DNA of 64,000 nt from Candidatus Heimdallarchaeota archaeon. Lineage in GTDB: Archaea > Asgardarchaeota > Heimdallarchaeia > Hodarchaeales > Hodarchaeaceae. The stretch's first letter is position 1, and each line of letters begins with the position of its first letter. The stretch is from the NCBI GenBank assembly GCA_011364965.1, contig RDOB01000003.1:192001-256000 (forward strand), in the 5' to 3' direction. Of this stretch, positions 24-60,076 are shown piece after piece. A program made the translations under genes and the position numbers. The notes beneath the pieces were generated by a model. That model was given only the letters and a program-made list of their open reading frames with translations, was not told the origin of the DNA and searched no databases.

Positions 24-431
24 TCATTTTTTCTTTTGATCGGTAATTTCTTGGTACCAATTATATACAAACGAATGATAATCAAAGTATGTATCAATCA
101 TCTCCTCGATCATATCTTCACCTTTCAAAGTAATAGTATAAATTCTCCGGGGTAAACCAGGAGAATCATTATCATCAGCAAGGATTGAAGAAATTAATCC
201 ATCCTTTTCCAACCGACTTAATAAGGGATAGATAGTCCCAGCTTTTAATTCAATACCAGTCTCTCGAATGAGTTTGATAAGACCATATCCATGAGCTTCT
301 TCTGTACGTAAGCGAATTAACATCAGTATCATTAGCTGAAGAAGCCCACGTCGAAGATCACGTTCCCAACTTTTAGTGATAGCAGATCTAGGACGAGGGT
401 TTGTCATAGTTCGATTTTTGTCTTCAGACAT
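24..431 (-). CDS. PadR-family transcriptional regulator
   Basis: RRGLLQLMILMLI...HGYGLIK...GTIYPLLSRLEKDGLI...RRIYTIT.KG is the PadR wHTH signature. Confidence 0.93.
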   Translation of the reverse strand: MSEDKNRTMTNPRPRSAITKSWERDLRRGLLQLMILMLIRLRTEEAHGYGLIKLIRETGIELKAGTIYPLLSRLEKDGLISSILADDNDSPGLPRRIYTITLKGEDMIEEMIDTYFDYHSFVYNWYQEITDQKKK

Positions 432-631: not shown

Positions 632-1735
632 CTAGGGATTAAAAGAGACGACCTTATAGGGAGGGAGGAACGCAAAATATTTCTGAATAATGCCATCCGC
701 TTTCGCAAATTGGCTTATTTCGCCCGAATCTAGCGTGGGGCCAAAAAGCTGCACAAATTCTCTTGTAAATTCTTTCAATGCTGACTGAATTAATTTGGAT
801 GACCGATCTGCTATCAAAAATCCCACTACATTTTGACAAGCTTCGAAAATAAAGAGATAGTTATCAGTTTGAATGTATCTGATCCGCTCTGCGTCTGAGA
901 TGACATTTTGGACAAATTGAAGGTTAGCAGTCATCAGATGAGGAATAAGGGTATTACTATCAGGACCCAGTTTTTTCGCTTCGAAAAGAACATCAAAAAT
1001 CGATAACCCTAGATTCATGTTCATAACAGACAAGCGGTAAACATTGAAAGGCACCATTCGCAAAACGCGCTCATCCCGGATAATTGAAACTAAAGCTAGC
1101 AAGACTCCGAGAGCAATTGTAAACATTTCTATCCCCCAGATAGCTAATGAGATTTTTGATGCTATTAAAAACGCAGGGCCTAATATTGGCAACAAACAAC
1201 CGACAAAGAGTAACAATGAAGATTTCAAGAGCTCAGAACGAATGAATGGAATAAATTGAAGTATTTGATAACTTACGACCACCCCTGCTAGGAATAGATC
1301 TACTCCAAAAACTATCCGAGAAAAATCTGCTAAATATGGACCAATTACTGGATCCCACCAGACCGTATCTGGTATAAAAGCTAAGACAATTCCATTCCCT
1401 GCTCCTAAAGCTGCAAGAATTAAGATTGAATTTGATGGCTTTTCGAATCGCAATGCTTCTAAGAAGAAGATTAAGGTACAGACTATCAAGCATAGAAAGA
1501 GAATGGACGTACGAAAAATGAAATCCATTTGTACGGGATAATTTGTTCCAATTAAATATAAAATGGCATGAGAAAGGAAAAAAGGCACTAAAAAAATATG
1601 TATTAGTATCAGGTAGACTAATGGAAGGGATTTAATCTTTCTGTATACTCGTAATGCAAAAAAAAGGTCAATAAGAGTTAATCCTAATGAGACCAAGGCA
1701 ATAGCTGTATATTGGAACTCATTAGGTGAAAGCAT
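632..1735 (-). CDS. 7-TM membrane protein with C-terminal longin/roadblock-like domain
   Basis: Seven hydrophobic segments followed by a ~140-aa soluble domain (PFNVYRLSVMN..GLSIF...FAFLPPY); paralog of 43333..44430. Confidence 0.7.
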   Translation of the reverse strand: MLSPNEFQYTAIALVSLGLTLIDLFFALRVYRKIKSLPLVYLILIHIFLVPFFLSHAILYLIGTNYPVQMDFIFRTSILFLCLIVCTLIFFLEALRFEKPSNSILILAALGAGNGIVLAFIPDTVWWDPVIGPYLADFSRIVFGVDLFLAGVVVSYQILQFIPFIRSELLKSSLLLFVGCLLPILGPAFLIASKISLAIWGIEMFTIALGVLLALVSIIRDERVLRMVPFNVYRLSVMNMNLGLSIFDVLFEAKKLGPDSNTLIPHLMTANLQFVQNVISDAERIRYIQTDNYLFIFEACQNVVGFLIADRSSKLIQSALKEFTREFVQLFGPTLDSGEISQFAKADGIIQKYFAFLPPYKVVSFNP

Positions 1736-2067: not shown

Positions 2068-2316
2068 ATGTCTTATTGTCCAAATTGCGGTACTGAAGTA
2101 GGAGGAGCAAAATTTTGTCCAAACTGTGGAGCTGCTCAAGGAAGTTTTGAAGGTTCAGGGCCAAGAGGCGCCACTAGAGAACCACAACATGTATATGTTT
2201 CTACTCGTCATCAATATGATGATGGGATTTGTTTACTACTTTGCTGTTGTTTGAGTCCAGTAGCTGCTATTATCTACTACTTGCTAGCAGAACATCCCGA
2301 TCAACGTTATGATTAA
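2068..2316 (+). CDS. Small double zinc-ribbon protein with Cys-rich C-terminal membrane segment
   Basis: YCPNCG and FCPNCG, then GICLLLCCCLSPVAAIIYYLL; GAGGA upstream. Confidence 0.8.
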   Translation: MSYCPNCGTEVGGAKFCPNCGAAQGSFEGSGPRGATREPQHVYVSTRHQYDDGICLLLCCCLSPVAAIIYYLLAEHPDQRYD

Positions 2317-2354: not shown

Positions 2355-2888
2355 ATGGCAAATACAAAACTCAATAGACTTAAGGGGTTCATTCGCTATT
2401 CTCTAGCGCATCACCCAATTTGCTGGCAGTATAGAAATCATCTAATTAAATTTAAAGGATGGTACTTTTGCTTAGGATGCACAGGGTTCTATAGCGGCTT
2501 TCTCGCTGGTATAGTTCTGATCTTTGGAGGTTTATTTAGTAAGATTTCTTGGATAAATCTCATCTTCATCGCAATCATCTTTTGGATTCCCACTATACTC
2601 AGATTAGTAAATATTAAGTATTTCAACACCCCTAAAAGGTCACTAAGACTAATTTTTCGTTTTCTATTAGGAATAGGTATTGCTTTAGGTATTTATTCTA
2701 TTTTTTTTGCTCCTACACCTCTCTTACAAATTATTCAGATATTAATTGGCCTTCTATTCTATGGTATTATCACTGTATATCGCGTAAGGAATGGCCCCCA
2801 AGAATGGAATCGCCTTTGTGAAACATGTACATTTACAAGGAACAAATCTTGCCCAGGTTTGAGTCCATTATTTATTTGGAGAACTTAA
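2355..2888 (+). CDS. Membrane protein with metal-binding Cys/His motifs (DUF2085-like)
   Basis: LAHHPIC...FCLGCTGFYSG, 4 TM segments, C-terminal CETC...CPG. Confidence 0.6.
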   Translation: MANTKLNRLKGFIRYSLAHHPICWQYRNHLIKFKGWYFCLGCTGFYSGFLAGIVLIFGGLFSKISWINLIFIAIIFWIPTILRLVNIKYFNTPKRSLRLIFRFLLGIGIALGIYSIFFAPTPLLQIIQILIGLLFYGIITVYRVRNGPQEWNRLCETCTFTRNKSCPGLSPLFIWRT

Positions 2889-11140: not shown

Positions 11141-11236
11141 AAGTTAAGATGGAATTCAAGGATTTGGAGCTAATAAAGCATATTGAAATATAAATTTCTT
11201 ATATAAATTTCTTATACAAAGAGTTATTGACTGCGA

Positions 11237-12472
11237 TTGACCAAAGTCCTAAAATTAAATAGTCCTCCCCATAGATTGGTGACAATTAAAGTGAATAATA
11301 CTTATAATTTTGATCAAGTAATCGATCGTCGAAAAACAGATTCAATTAAATGGAATGATGAATTTCTAAAAGAATATTTCAAAGGAGAAAACCTTCTTCC
11401 ATTATGGGTTGCAGATATGGACTTTCGGGCTCCTCAACCAGTAATTGATGCTCTTGTGGCACGAGCAAAACATGGAATTTTTGGGTATGGAACTGCAGGT
11501 TGGCCTGAGTATTTTGAAAGTGTAATTTCATGGTTTTCTAGACGATATAACTGGAACATCAAAAAGGATTGGTTTGTTCATGCCCCTGGAATTGTTCCAG
11601 CGTGTTATTATATAATTCAGCGATTCAGCCATCCGGGGGATAAGATTATCATTCAAAATCCTGTGTATTATCCCTTTGCATCTGGAATCATATCAAACGG
11701 GAGAATTGTTGCCTCTAACGACTTGAAACTGGAAAATGGTAGATATACAATGGATTTTGAAGACTTGGAGAAGAAAGTTAAAGATCCACTTACAAAAATG
11801 ATAATTTTATGCAGTCCCCATAATCCTGTTGGGCGTGTGTGGATAAAAGAAGAATTAGAACGGTTGGGAGAAATTTGTTTTAGTAATGGAGTCTTAATAG
11901 TTTCAGATGAAATTCATTGTGATTTGACCTATCCCTCCATCAAACACACCATTTTTGCATCTATTTCGGAGGAACTCGCTCAAAATACCATCACATGCAC
12001 TGCAGGGAGTAAAACCTTTAATCTTGCAGGTTTGCATCATTCAAATGTCATAATTTCGAACTCTAAATTAAGAGAAGAATTTAAAACTCAATTAAGAATA
12101 AATGGCTTGATGACACCAAACATTTTTGGAACACACGCCTTACAAGCTGCGTATAGTAAATGTGAAGATTGGTTAGACGCTCTGATGGTATATTTACAAA
12201 AGAATTTAGAATTTTTAAAGAAGTTTTTAAGGAAGAACTTCCCACAAGTGAAAATTATTGAACCTGAGGGTACATATTTAGTTTGGATGGACTTCAGAGA
12301 ATTAAACCTATCAGGAAAAGATCTTCAATCCAAGTTAATTGAAGCCAAGGTTGCACTTGATCCAGGACACATTTTTGGATCTGGAGGAGAGGGATTCATG
12401 CGCATCAACATTGCTTGTCCCCAAAGTACTTTAGAGGAATCATTGAATCGAATAGTAAGGGCATTTATTTGA
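11237..12472 (+). CDS. MalY/PatB-family PLP C-S lyase (cystathionine beta-lyase-like)
   Basis: LPLWVADMDF, LCSPHNPVGRVW, SDEIH, SKTFNLAG. Confidence 0.93.
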   Translation: MTKVLKLNSPPHRLVTIKVNNTYNFDQVIDRRKTDSIKWNDEFLKEYFKGENLLPLWVADMDFRAPQPVIDALVARAKHGIFGYGTAGWPEYFESVISWFSRRYNWNIKKDWFVHAPGIVPACYYIIQRFSHPGDKIIIQNPVYYPFASGIISNGRIVASNDLKLENGRYTMDFEDLEKKVKDPLTKMIILCSPHNPVGRVWIKEELERLGEICFSNGVLIVSDEIHCDLTYPSIKHTIFASISEELAQNTITCTAGSKTFNLAGLHHSNVIISNSKLREEFKTQLRINGLMTPNIFGTHALQAAYSKCEDWLDALMVYLQKNLEFLKKFLRKNFPQVKIIEPEGTYLVWMDFRELNLSGKDLQSKLIEAKVALDPGHIFGSGGEGFMRINIACPQSTLEESLNRIVRAFI

Positions 12473-43332: not shown

Positions 43333-44430
43333 ATGATTCTAACCTTTGAAGTGCTCGTTGGCTTTTTAACTTCTGCTTTTATACTAATTGCTTTTTCTAT
43401 CGCCCTGTTACGATATTTAAAATTAGGTTATCGTCCTCTCTTGTTTCTCGCCCTTCAATGGCTCGGAATTGCACTGTGGGGATTATTTACTGCTATCTCC
43501 ACCTTTATTTTAGAGAATGGAGACACTCCTAATATTCTCTTTTTTCCTCCTCTTCAGCTTGACTGGACTCTTGCTGATCTCCTCGGTTTTATAGGATATT
43601 TTATCACAATTCCCACTTTATTTCTCTTAATCTTCTTCTTGGATTCGATCACTCGAACATCTATAGAACCGGTTAAAATGCTTATCGGAGGGATGATTGC
43701 TGCAACTCTGATCATCACCGGATTAGTACCGGGTCAAGGTGCAAAAAATGTTACGATTTATACCTATTATGCGCAAGCTATATACTATATGTTTTGGATT
43801 CTCCTGTGGTTGTATTATACTTTCAAAATATTCCTAAGCAGTCCGCAGAACTTGAAAAGATATTCTGCTATTGTATTAATAGGAAGTATCATTATTTTTC
43901 TAGATGCTTTTTTGACAGTAACTCGTTTAAATCCACCTGAATCAAATTTAAGCATGTTTTTGATGGGATCAGGAGCTTTAATGATCGTAATTCCATACAG
44001 CTTTCAAACAAAGTTATTATATATTTTACCATTCAAAGCTACGCGTTTAATAGTAATTAATGACAATGGAATACCACTGTTCTCTCATAGTTGGGTGAAA
44101 GGAACTGATCCTTCAGGAGAAGTGTTATTTAGTGGAATGATGAGTGGAATCAGCGCCATTCTGAACGAATCATTGAAGAAAGGCTTAGTACGGGAAATAG
44201 CATTAGACGAGTCAAAGTTACTTATCGAAACGGATAAGAGATATTCAATAATTTTCGTTCTCCAATGTACCAGAACATCAACTTCATTATCAGATGCCCT
44301 TCATTTATTCTCAGAACAATTCATCTTAAATTTCAAGGAGTATTTATCAGGTTCCTTCATCAACACAGAGAAATTTAATGCATCAAAACTTGTTGATGAG
44401 TGTTTTCCGTTTCTACCGGATTATAACTAG
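43333..44430 (+). CDS. 7-TM membrane protein with C-terminal longin/roadblock-like domain
   Basis: 7 TM; LPFKATRLIVINDNGIPLF...LFSGMMSGI...FPFLPDY. Confidence 0.75.
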   Translation: MILTFEVLVGFLTSAFILIAFSIALLRYLKLGYRPLLFLALQWLGIALWGLFTAISTFILENGDTPNILFFPPLQLDWTLADLLGFIGYFITIPTLFLLIFFLDSITRTSIEPVKMLIGGMIAATLIITGLVPGQGAKNVTIYTYYAQAIYYMFWILLWLYYTFKIFLSSPQNLKRYSAIVLIGSIIIFLDAFLTVTRLNPPESNLSMFLMGSGALMIVIPYSFQTKLLYILPFKATRLIVINDNGIPLFSHSWVKGTDPSGEVLFSGMMSGISAILNESLKKGLVREIALDESKLLIETDKRYSIIFVLQCTRTSTSLSDALHLFSEQFILNFKEYLSGSFINTEKFNASKLVDECFPFLPDYN

Positions 44431-44456: not shown

Positions 44457-44970
44457 TTACTTCCTAAATACTTTTTTGATTTCTTTTAGAGGTACATCAA
44501 ACACTTCATTATGGGGGGGGAGGGGTTCAGAATAAAAAAACTCTGGCAATCTATCATGAGCTTTGGTAAATCCTACTCTTTTATTAAACTCAAGTTTCTT
44601 CTTTAATATCTTCATTCCATAAGATACTGGATCTAATTCTTCTAGTTCTAACATCGCTTTCCCATTGTCAATCATTCCTTCCATTGCAGATGGTATATCT
44701 AGGAGTGCATATACAGTAAAGAAGCAATATCCTATAGAATCAAGAAAAGCAGTAAAGGCCTGATACTGGGAGCATTTGTATCGTAATAAAACCAGGAGCA
44801 GCAATAAATTTATTATTAGGTCCCAAAGGTTCACACAAAAGGATCTACTTCATCTACAATTATTGTAGATGTTAATCCTCTTCCCCCTAAGTGTATATAT
44901 TCTTCGGGTAATTCTTCCCAATTTACAGTTAGTTTTGTCATATTTACCCTTACGATCTGATTCAAGTCAT
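44457..44970 (-). pseudogene. Aldehyde:ferredoxin oxidoreductase remnant with large internal deletion and frameshifts
   Basis: N-terminus (QIVRVNMTKL...LGGRGL...EVDP/CEPLGPNNK) joined directly to C-terminus (DSIGYCFF...DRLPEFFYSEPLPPHN). Confidence 0.85.
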
Positions 44971-58639: not shown

Positions 58640-60076
58640 TTAAGTCGAGTAATAAACGGGTAAAGAGAACTTAAATGTAGATCCTTTATCTAGTCCATCA
58701 CTTCTTACTGTAATTATCCCTTGGTGACTCTCAACGATTTTTTTACATAAATAAAGCCCAATTCCAGTCCCTTTTGAGGAATATTTGGTAGGAATCGTTA
58801 TAAACTGATCAAATATTTTCTCAAGATTGTTCTTAGCAATCCCAGCTCCGTTATCTTTCACATTGATAACAATTTTCTTTTTCTTAAGAGTAACGCTTAA
58901 TTCAATTTTCCTAGTATCCTTTGGGGTATTATTAACTGCATTATCTACTAAATTGGCCAACACCTGACTAATTCGATCCTTATCCATTTCCACAAGTATT
59001 TTTCCATGATGATCACATGAATGAAATATGAAAGATGACCCCAATAGGATTTGAAAGCTCAAAACTTCCCCTTGCAAGAAATCACAAAAATCTACAACCT
59101 CTTTATTTAGTTCAAATACTCCACGTTCAAATTTATAAATATCAGAGATACCTTTGGTTAGGATTTCAAGCTTCTTGATATTCCTGCCAATAATATCGAC
59201 AAATTGGTTTTCCTTCAATTCAGGATGAATTAGTTGAATAGCATCAATGGCTCCTTTTATACTACTGATTGGATTTTTCAGTTCATGAGTAGCTATTTCA
59301 ATAAATCTTTGACGCTGCTGCTCAAGTTCAACTCTCATAATTTCAACTTTCTTCCGGTCAGTAATATCCAAAGCAGTTGTTAAAAATACTTCTTCATTTT
59401 TAAAATGAACAATCTTCTCAGTATTAGTTAAAATACTGTATTCAGACCCATCTGGTTGAATCCTTTGTAGTTCTACGTTTTTAACCCTTCCTGAAATTCT
59501 TAATTCCTTCATAAGCTGTTCTCTTTGATTTGGGTCAGCATAAGTATTCAGTAGATTAACTTCATTAGTATCAAGATCAGTTAATCCCATTATTTCTAGC
59601 ATTTTTTGATTGCAGGTCAATATTTTTCCTTCTTCATTAGAAGTACCAATTCCAATTGGAGCTGACTCAAAAAGAAGTCTATAGAGATCCTCCGCTTCTT
59701 TTCGGTCTGTTATATCTAAAGTTAAATTCAAAATATACGGTTTATTATTTAATTTAGCCAATTCGATATTTGTTAAAGTATAACAGGTAGTACCGTCCTT
59801 TCTCTTCCGTTGAATCTCCAAATTCACGACTCTACCTTTCTCCAATAATTCTCGTAAGCTTTTCTCTCTATCCCGCACATCCAAGAACGTATCTCTCATA
59901 TCAACTTGTTTTAACTCAACAGGTGTATACCCTAAAATTTCTGCAATTTTTTTATTATAAAAAATAACATTACCCTCGAAATCAGAGATACCAATTCCGA
60001 TAGGAGCCTGTTCAGTAATAAATTTGTACAGTGCGCCTGTTTCTATGAGAGACCGAACCTCATCACTATCATACAT
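58640..60076 (-). CDS. Cytoplasmic PAS-PAS histidine kinase
   Basis: Two PAS/PAC domains (DITDRK), HELKNP, NLVDNA, DNGAGI, GTGIGL; start taken at Met51 of the ORF. Confidence 0.9.
   Translation of the reverse strand: MYDSDEVRSLIETGALYKFITEQAPIGIGISDFEGNVIFYNKKIAEILGYTPVELKQVDMRDTFLDVRDREKSLRELLEKGRVVNLEIQRKRKDGTTCYTLTNIELAKLNNKPYILNLTLDITDRKEAEDLYRLLFESAPIGIGTSNEEGKILTCNQKMLEIMGLTDLDTNEVNLLNTYADPNQREQLMKELRISGRVKNVELQRIQPDGSEYSILTNTEKIVHFKNEEVFLTTALDITDRKKVEIMRVELEQQRQRFIEIATHELKNPISSIKGAIDAIQLIHPELKENQFVDIIGRNIKKLEILTKGISDIYKFERGVFELNKEVVDFCDFLQGEVLSFQILLGSSFIFHSCDHHGKILVEMDKDRISQVLANLVDNAVNNTPKDTRKIELSVTLKKKKIVINVKDNGAGIAKNNLEKIFDQFITIPTKYSSKGTGIGLYLCKKIVESHQGIITVRSDGLDKGSTFKFSLPVYYST

Follow-up and report, generated by a model that had tools for sequence, protein, structure and literature searches.

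In a stretch of 64,000 nucleotides from a Candidatus Heimdallarchaeota archaeon (Hodarchaeaceae; assembly GCA_011364965.1, contig RDOB01000003.1, positions 192,001 to 256,000, hereafter the window), we identified two copies of a gene whose product joins a seven-transmembrane (7TM) domain to a cytoplasmic longin domain. These proteins belong to a real, widespread and uncharacterised family of putative 7TM-longin sensors, a new pairing of two known kinds of domain. We propose, at somewhat better than even confidence, that the first of them, copy 1, works as a dimer: its seven-helix sensor would act, by way of a conserved inner face, on paired longins that dock or regulate a soluble partner. Computation provided the basis of this proposal, namely both folds, the membrane topology, the extent of the family, the relatives fused to kinases and the predicted dimer. 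The features of the two copies are as follows.

632..1735, minus strand: 7TM-longin copy 1 (P0001), whole gene, 367 amino acids (aa); single intact open reading frame (ORF) with its translation.
1058..1735, minus strand: predicted seven-helix membrane domain of copy 1, residues 1-226, N-terminus outside and C-terminus inside; AlphaFold2 helices, lysine plus arginine (K+R) counts of the loops, fold matches and hhalign.
1457..1474, minus strand: LIFFLE motif of copy 1, residues 88-93, at the cytoplasmic end of the third transmembrane helix (TM3); conserved in the family and common to copy 2.
1331..1363, minus strand: predicted beta hairpin in the outside TM4-TM5 loop of copy 1, residues 125-135; strands 125-128 and 132-135 in the model.
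647..1051, minus strand: predicted cytoplasmic longin domain of copy 1, residues 229-363; domain-only model and fold matches.
857..892, minus strand: longin strand beta3 and its flanks in copy 1, residues 282-293, predicted two-fold dimer contact; homodimer prediction.
43333..44430, plus strand: 7TM-longin copy 2 (P0002), paralog, 365 aa; BLASTP, family profile and tree.
44014..44427, plus strand: longin domain of copy 2, residues 228-365; longin-domain profile match, E 4e-44.

Copy 1 begins with an ATG at a position that matches 18 aligned orthologs. The two copies share 23% identity along their full length in BLASTP (E 2e-10), and copy 2 was also recovered by a profile made solely of copy-1 orthologs (7.5e-13) and by the family profile (E 4e-94). 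The first-pass annotation, made from the sequence alone, had claimed three motifs common to the two proteins, and all are present in the BLASTP alignment: LIFFLE in copy 1 and LIFFLD in copy 2 at the end of TM3, PFNVYRLSVMNMNLGLSIF in copy 1 and PFKATRLIVINDN-GIPLF in copy 2, and FAFLPPY and FPFLPDY, respectively. The genome (2.97 Mb in 16 contigs, 87% complete; the window is C11:192001-256000) encodes a third full-length copy at C11:396252-397457. Twenty-eight orthologs of copy 1, at 49-64% identity, come from Hodarchaeales-type genomes, and its closest named relatives are from Hodarchaeum mangrovi, Hodarchaeales and Heimdallarchaeota. Neither window copy has a match above the cut-offs of Pfam or NCBIfam.

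An AlphaFold2 model of full-length copy 1, built from an alignment of 65 family members, reached a pLDDT of 92.0 and a pTM of 0.88. It contains seven transmembrane helices (4-34, 37-62, 67-96, 102-120, 137-164, 167-192 and 202-220), in line with the number read from the letters at the outset and with a hydropathy scan. Among 112 family members, the loops after TM1, TM3, TM5 and TM7 carry on average 3.3, 1.5, 2.7 and 1.6 K+R, against 0.05, 0.13, 0.56 and 0.54 in the opposite loops; basic residues are thus concentrated on one side, which places the N-terminus outside and the C-terminal domain in the cytoplasm. The best structural matches of the membrane part were a designed GPCR-like fold (Z 16.1), Frizzled-1 (FZD1, 16.0) and Ste2 (15.5), with the sodium-pump rhodopsin KR2 also at Z 15.5; the matches span 200-220 residues and range over Z 14-16, and those within 1 Z unit were treated as tied. 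The membrane part is therefore predicted to have a generic seven-helix GPCR/rhodopsin fold, and fold alone does not make the protein a GPCR. The description "GPCR-analogous" in the first-pass annotation reaches no further than the generic 7TM fold, to which microbial rhodopsins are just as close. No GPCR family appeared in Pfam scans of the 65 members, even at E 0.1. Microbial rhodopsin was itself rejected as an identity, as TM7 of copy 1 (202-220) has no lysine and none is conserved in the family.

Conservation in the membrane half is placed mostly on the cytoplasmic face. Position 93, the most conserved charged site of the membrane domain, is D or E in 91% of 87 non-redundant members, and E93 with the LIFFLE site is invariant in 19 orthologs of copy 1. 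The other family-wide positions of this half are E98 (89%), K/R104 (75%), P166 (89%), K/R170 (92%) and P222 (92%). In the outside hairpin, G132 and P133 are invariant in orthologs, and G132 is found in 70% of the family. No conserved polar residue was found inside the membrane core of the 87 members. Column identity is 38% in the longin half and 24% in the membrane half, and the closest ortholog of copy 1 is 74% identical in the longin part and 58% in the membrane part. A fixed inner face and output domain combined with a variable outside and core fits the pattern expected of a receptor family.

The membrane part also resembles known prokaryotic input modules. When its profile was compared by hhalign with the HisKA_7TM regions of genuine Asgard histidine kinases, the two aligned over 190 columns with TM2-TM7 in register (probability 92.4%, E 5.4e-7), at only 9% identity and between hydrophobic profiles; the score was 48.7, whereas reversed profiles scored 17 and none of 20 block shuffles exceeded 32.8. 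In the ESM Atlas, the first shape matches were three Asgard clusters of the same architecture, followed by bacterial His_kinase/HATPase and GGDEF proteins, matched over their membrane parts (TM 0.51-0.52 over 216-221 residues, rmsd 3.0-3.3 A). Weak Pfam matches to HisKA_7TM/7TMR-DISM occur in 3 of the 65 members (HisKA_7TM in two, best E 3.7e-4), and some neighbours in a protein language model carry HisKA_7TM, which we take as a lead only. Judged from sequence profiles, the membrane part appears to be a distant relative of the HisKA_7TM input module and not a member of it. The profile homology and the shape matches to kinase and GGDEF membrane modules lend support to the idea, already put forward in the first-pass annotation, that the protein is a membrane sensor with a signalling role.

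The C-terminal domain is, in the models, a longin by fold and not by any curated family model. In copy 1 it consists of strands 232-239 and 244-251, helix 263-279, strands 287-289, 294-300 and 303-309, helices 314-334 and 340-353, and a short last strand (360-363). When folded alone (pLDDT 80), it kept the beta-beta-alpha-beta-beta-beta-alpha-alpha order by DSSP in both independent models; this is the order first read from the sequence, to which the model adds the final strand. The 23 best matches among 48,161 solved chains are all of longin fold (Z 9.1-12.0, 108-129 residues aligned), headed by Sec22 (Z 12.0, rmsd 2.9 A over 120 residues) and including VAMP7 (11.6), Fuzzy of CPLANE (11.1), synbindin (11.0), AP-3 sigma (10.8) and sedlin (10.5); SRX and BLOC-3 are also among the longin-fold matches. 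Roadblock proteins start at rank 24 (Z 7.1-8.9, 92-103 residues aligned). Foldseek returned 10 hits at E <= 1e-3, every one a longin (AP2 sigma, E 3e-5). By sequence, Pfam Longin (PF13774) scores 12.0 bits in copy 1, below its cut-off of 26.2, Fuz_longin_1 reaches a best E of 6.7e-4 in 2 of the 65 members, and searches of PDB sequences with full-length and domain profiles found nothing significant. F323, F327 and F354 are ~100% conserved in the family. The structural comparison of the last ~140 aa thus bears out the longin of the suggested "longin/roadblock" domain and removes the roadblock. Roadblock/LC7 (MglB, LAMTOR) was rejected on topology: beta1 directly follows the linker after TM7 with no preceding helix, and two helices stand at the C-terminal end.

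Two copies of full-length copy 1 are predicted to pair, with a score of 0.43 against 0.00 for the best of three controls. The mark for a dimer was reached by 20 of 30 proteins solved as one-chain pairs and by 1 of 23 solved as single chains, a calibration that applies only roughly here, since we supplied our own alignment of the family. The runs share at least 77% of contacts, and the partner has a pLDDT of at least 76. Confident contacts involve beta3 and its flanks (282-293) and TM4 (100-121), and residue 288 pairs with residue 288 of the other chain at an expected error of 1.6 A. In the beta3 region, E283, I285, I288, T290, D291 and N292 are invariant among orthologs. We read this homodimer prediction as a likeness, not as proof of binding.

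The family is found throughout the Asgard archaea. An exhaustive search of 1.84 billion representatives returned 212 clusters at E <= 1e-3, mostly of 340-385 aa and of the same architecture, and the named clusters are all Asgard (Lokiarchaeota/Promethearchaeota, Sigynarchaeota, Kariarchaeaceae and Hodarchaeales); a word-indexed protein search with the family profile found only orthologs and one Lokiarchaeota member. At E <= 1e-8, the family profile matches 282 of 301 sampled Asgard genomes, including all 90 of high quality, and many of the sampled genomes have at least six matches. Together with the three full-length paralogs of this genome, this upholds the suggestion of a multi-copy family. 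In the tree, copy 1 lies in a divergent subfamily, in which every named member is from Hodarchaeales or Heimdallarchaeota, and copy 2 lies in the main body of the family. We found no published description of the 7TM-longin architecture in the literature on Asgard longins, and the family has no name in Pfam or NCBIfam. A 2026 preprint counts "7TM proteins" among reported Asgard signature families, and in Asgard archaea longins are reported to be fused many times to two-component domains, in proteins whose domains are heavily shuffled (Liu et al., bioRxiv 10.1101/2020.10.19.343400).

From these elements, a mechanism can be proposed. The input would be a seven-helix module of the kind used by prokaryotic histidine kinases and cyclases, which, with its variable core and outside loops, probably detects a small molecule or a state of the membrane. 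The change would cross the conserved cytoplasmic face (D/E93, E98, K/R104 and the TM5-6 loop) into the C-terminal longin. Two longins would pair through their beta3 edge strands to form a platform just beneath the membrane, which may dock or regulate a soluble signalling protein. The leading candidate for this partner would be one of the ~58 small GTPases of the genome, followed by a soluble histidine kinase. We infer the sensing itself, the passage of the signal through the longin and the identity of the partner.

A link to histidine kinases comes from relatives of copy 1. Lokiarchaeia-type members of 625-640 aa read 7TM-longin-HisKA-HATPase_c, and 42 kinase-fused clusters in the protein collection each have both HisKA and HATPase_c. 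In the tree, these clusters make up a single clade (support 1.0) that branches from within the stand-alone members, so a kinase was probably added to a pre-existing 7TM-longin module. In this clade, the longin occupies the place between membrane and kinase that is usual for PAS, GAF or HAMP domains. Elsewhere, two orthologs of copy 1, P0010 (51% identity) and P0018 (49%), are followed on the same strand, ~100 nt downstream, by a gene for a soluble PAS-PAS-HisKA-HATPase kinase. The loci are as follows.

L076:1224-3101, plus strand: 7TM-longin-HisKA-HATPase_c relative, Lokiarchaeia-type genome.
L077:1274-3157, plus strand: 7TM-longin-HisKA-HATPase_c relative, Lokiarchaeia-type genome.
L079:434-2356, minus strand: 7TM-longin-HisKA-HATPase_c relative, Lokiarchaeia-type genome.
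L084:5211-6650, plus strand: PAS-PAS kinase next to a copy-1 ortholog, from gene neighbourhood.
L086:4746-6212, plus strand: PAS-PAS kinase next to a copy-1 ortholog, from gene neighbourhood.

Given the kinase-fused clade and the PAS kinase downstream of two orthologs, the longin resembles a transmitter or docking domain, and a kinase is as plausible a partner for it as a GTPase. The first-pass annotation had the family replacing a kinase output with another module, which is half right: stand-alone members lack a kinase, but one clade has one after the longin and two orthologs precede a soluble PAS kinase. Copy 1 could accordingly be the sensor half of a split two-component system, in which a soluble PAS histidine kinase docks on the longin and has its autophosphorylation controlled there, as would happen in cis in the fused relatives. 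The 7-10 histidine-kinase-type genes of this genome and the reported Asgard fusions of longins with two-component domains are consistent with such a system. However, the PAS kinase is not directly downstream in a third ortholog, no kinase stands beside either window copy or orthologs P0004, P0008 and P0015, and a kinase lies within 6 kb at only 1 of 39 family loci. Fusion and adjacency each amount to one evolutionary event, and the family is far more widely spread than its kinase links; we consider a split two-component system unlikely. We also observed that the upstream genes at both PAS-kinase loci encode an ABC ATPase and a 570-aa protein, that L078:1259-3289 (plus strand) encodes a 7TM-longin protein with a 320-aa tail and a sub-threshold winged-helix match, and that L080:1197-3059 (plus strand) joins the same 7TM to HisKA-HATPase via an unassigned 150-aa segment without a longin match. 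In the window, the HATPase_c of a 529-aa histidine-kinase ORF lies at 58655-58984 (minus strand), ~14 kb from copy 2.

The other candidate partner is a small GTPase. Asgard genomes encode dozens of small GTPases and of longin and roadblock proteins, and for the most part neither the native regulators of these proteins nor their links to membranes are known (Tran et al. 2024, PMC10933270); in this genome we counted ~58 small-GTPase ORFs and 23 ORFs with this longin type. The longin dimer could be a membrane-tethered guanine nucleotide exchange factor (GEF), GTPase-activating protein (GAP) or anchor for a Rab-, Arf- or Rag-like GTPase, with the receptor linked to a GTPase switch without an intermediate. 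Among the best structural matches are several GTPase-holding longins (Fuzzy-Inturned/Rab23, Mon1-Ccz1/Ypt7, the TRAPP core and SRX/SR-beta), and the predicted beta3 dimer has the usual geometry of a GTPase-binding platform (Tran et al. 2024, PMC10933270). Among the longin paralogs of this genome, one is joined to a RagA-like GTPase (L020) and another begins 10 nt after a Rab-like GTPase; together with fusions to a MinD/ParA-type ATPase and HerA, this ties the clade to GTPases and other P-loop NTPases. Across the family, tandem 7TM-longin pairs stand beside a Rab-like GTPase in one Lokiarchaeia-type genus, and in two genomes of one genus a paralog of a third type stands at 42 and 633 nt from a GTPase.

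Nevertheless, the nearest GTPases to copies 1, 2 and 3 of this genome are 39, 29 and 10 kb away, and at the 39 family loci, from ~28 genera, 8 have a GTPase within 6 kb, as often as expected by chance (~0.23 from the GTPase density in this genome). Where a GTPase is adjacent, it lies on the opposite strand, and each such case is limited to a single genus; in the best 30 family loci these GTPases number 7, all from one genus and beside the tandem pair. In Asgard genomes, GTPase genes do not as a rule share operons with those of their longin or roadblock proteins (Tran et al. 2024, PMC10933270), and absent adjacency therefore counts little either way. Longins also serve without GTPases, in SNAREs and adaptor subunits. 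The wiring to small GTPases proposed in the first-pass annotation is thus not supported as it was written: it draws on longin precedent and on GTPase-fused or GTPase-adjacent longin paralogs, with neighbours at the chance rate. We regard a GEF, GAP or anchor role as possible, with the balance tipped against it.

Several gene arrangements around GTPases can be recorded here. The tandem 7TM-longin pairs (L037-L042 and L035) are lineage-specific duplicates 20-60 nt apart; in 7 of 7 genomes, an opposite-strand gene for a Rab-like GTPase, at a distance of ~35 nt, converges with them. In this genome, the clearest GTPase-longin operon is at C11:153287-154621 (L060), where a gene for a 184-aa Rab-like GTPase is followed after 10 nt by one for a 256-aa longin protein with a weak Fuz_longin_1 match. 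At C11:567823-571458 (minus strand), one strand encodes a 462-aa longin-RagA-like GTPase fusion (L020, last gene), a histidine kinase of ~510 aa and a 217-aa Rab-like GTPase, a run that suggests cross-talk between two-component and GTPase systems. Three confident Gtr1/RagA-type GTPases of 301-334 aa are encoded at C5:9796-13576 and C5:17229-18134 (L059:3797-7577, 11230-12135), where a further ORF (312 aa, E 9e-6) matches less strongly; of these four genes, three share a minus-strand run with genes for an M50 peptidase and two unassigned proteins. A crude scan around all ~58 GTPase ORFs found no longin-Arf-7TM cassette in this genome, and the sole seven-helix protein beside a GTPase is an M50 peptidase on C5.

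Reuse of the longin bears on whether the protein is a sensor at all. Members of the same longin clade occur in this genome in fusions with MFS transporters, a RagA-like GTPase, V4R, a MinD/ParA-type ATPase, HerA and TPR. Two adjacent, co-oriented MFS transporters of 553 and 545 aa, encoded ~42 kb before the window (C11:146431-149843; L006, L011), both terminate in this longin type (E 8e-21 and 6e-12 to the domain profile). Copy 1 might then be a transporter, a channel or a structural anchor, with a longin that only dimerises or binds trafficking- or coat-like proteins; that the top structural matches are SNARE and adaptor longins and that no conserved signalling-type neighbours were found would agree with this. 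However, the membrane core has no conserved polar residues, the 7TM part aligns with sensor input modules and not with transporters, kinase-fused relatives exist, and copy 1, which ends four residues past the longin domain, consequently has neither a SNARE motif nor a coiled coil. We hold a non-sensor role to be quite improbable.

Against our proposal that copy 1 is a dimeric sensor acting through its longin, several observations must be set. Pfam HisKA_7TM (PF16927, cut-off 28.6 bits) has no match in copies 1 and 2 and none above its cut-off in any member, so the homology to sensor modules hangs on one profile-profile comparison of hydrophobic proteins; at E <= 1e-6, the same model finds nothing in this genome and true kinases in sister genomes. 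Gene neighbourhoods name no partner. The longin clade, given its range of fusions, serves many purposes and is not bound to one output. Longins and roadblocks usually dimerise by edge-strand pairing, so the success of the dimer prediction may stem from the model's memory of solved longin and roadblock dimers.

The genes around the window copies are of mixed kinds. On the same strand as copy 1, 200 nt downstream, lies a PadR-type regulator (24-431, minus strand), and the other neighbours are a divergent gene for a zinc-ribbon membrane protein (2068-2316, plus strand) and a gene for a DUF2085 membrane protein (2355-2888, plus strand); none of the three is kept beside the orthologs examined. The zinc-ribbon neighbour, seen in the window and at one ortholog locus, was considered as a conserved partner and rejected as a coincidence, as orientation and size differ. 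The neighbourhoods of nine family members revealed no conserved partner except the PAS kinase in one ortholog subgroup. Beside copy 2, a 125-aa ORF (44457-44834, minus strand) matches positions 262-348 of the model for the C-terminal part of aldehyde ferredoxin oxidoreductase and is probably a gene remnant.

From a biological perspective, the family covalently ties a eukaryote-type longin to a prokaryote-type membrane sensor. It is, in our view, rather doubtful that the stand-alone members regulate or anchor Asgard small GTPases in a receptor-coupled way. If they did, a route from sensor to longin platform to GTPase switch would already exist in archaeal relatives of eukaryotes, and would be a definite example of a signal controlling a GTPase at the membrane of an archaeon; it could be a forerunner of the nutrient-signalling logic of Rag, GATOR and LYCHOS, and it would explain how Asgard GTPases reach membranes. 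If the partner is instead a histidine kinase, a longin fold would be doing a job of the PAS/GAF type, and the longins counted as a "eukaryotic signature" of Asgard genomes would have to be read differently. The soluble domain, residues 229-367, can be used directly as bait.

Finally, the 7TM-longin proteins can be compared with known systems. Like the prokaryotic 7TM-receptor proteins (HisKA_7TM, PF16927; 7TMR-DISM), they have a seven-helix, N-out input module followed directly by a cytoplasmic domain, and certain relatives likewise terminate in HisKA-HATPase_c; unlike them, the domain after the membrane is a longin and not a kinase, cyclase or phosphatase, and copy 1 has no histidine-kinase core and nothing after the longin. 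The longin SNAREs (Sec22, VAMP7 and Ykt6) are also membrane-attached longin proteins, and Sec22 and VAMP7 are the best structural matches; here, however, the membrane part comes first and has seven helices instead of one, no SNARE motif is present, and identity is 12-16%. Mon1-Ccz1, the TRAPP core (Bet5/Trs23) and Fuzzy-Inturned share the longin fold at Z 8.9-11.1, and their paired longins resemble the predicted edge-strand dimer of copy 1, but they are soluble multi-subunit complexes recruited to membranes, whereas the predicted longin of copy 1 is covalently attached to a polytopic membrane domain. The Asgard longin and roadblock proteins described so far (Tran et al. 2024, PMC10933270; PDB 8yqg; Liu et al. 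2020/2021) come from the same phylum and domain superfamily; the Lokiarchaeota roadblock-longin protein 8yqg matches the longin of copy 1 at Z 8.4, and the longin fusions with GTPase, V4R and two-component domains reported in the Tran and Liu papers are seen in this genome as well. In logic, the lysosomal sensors LYCHOS/GPR155 with GATOR1 and SLC38A9 with Ragulator are alike, as in each a polytopic sensor talks to longin or roadblock controllers of small GTPases. LYCHOS is among the 7TM structural matches (Z 14.5), and this genome has Gtr1/RagA-type GTPases. In the eukaryotic systems, sensor and longin proteins are separate polypeptides, unlike the single chain of the 7TM-longin family.

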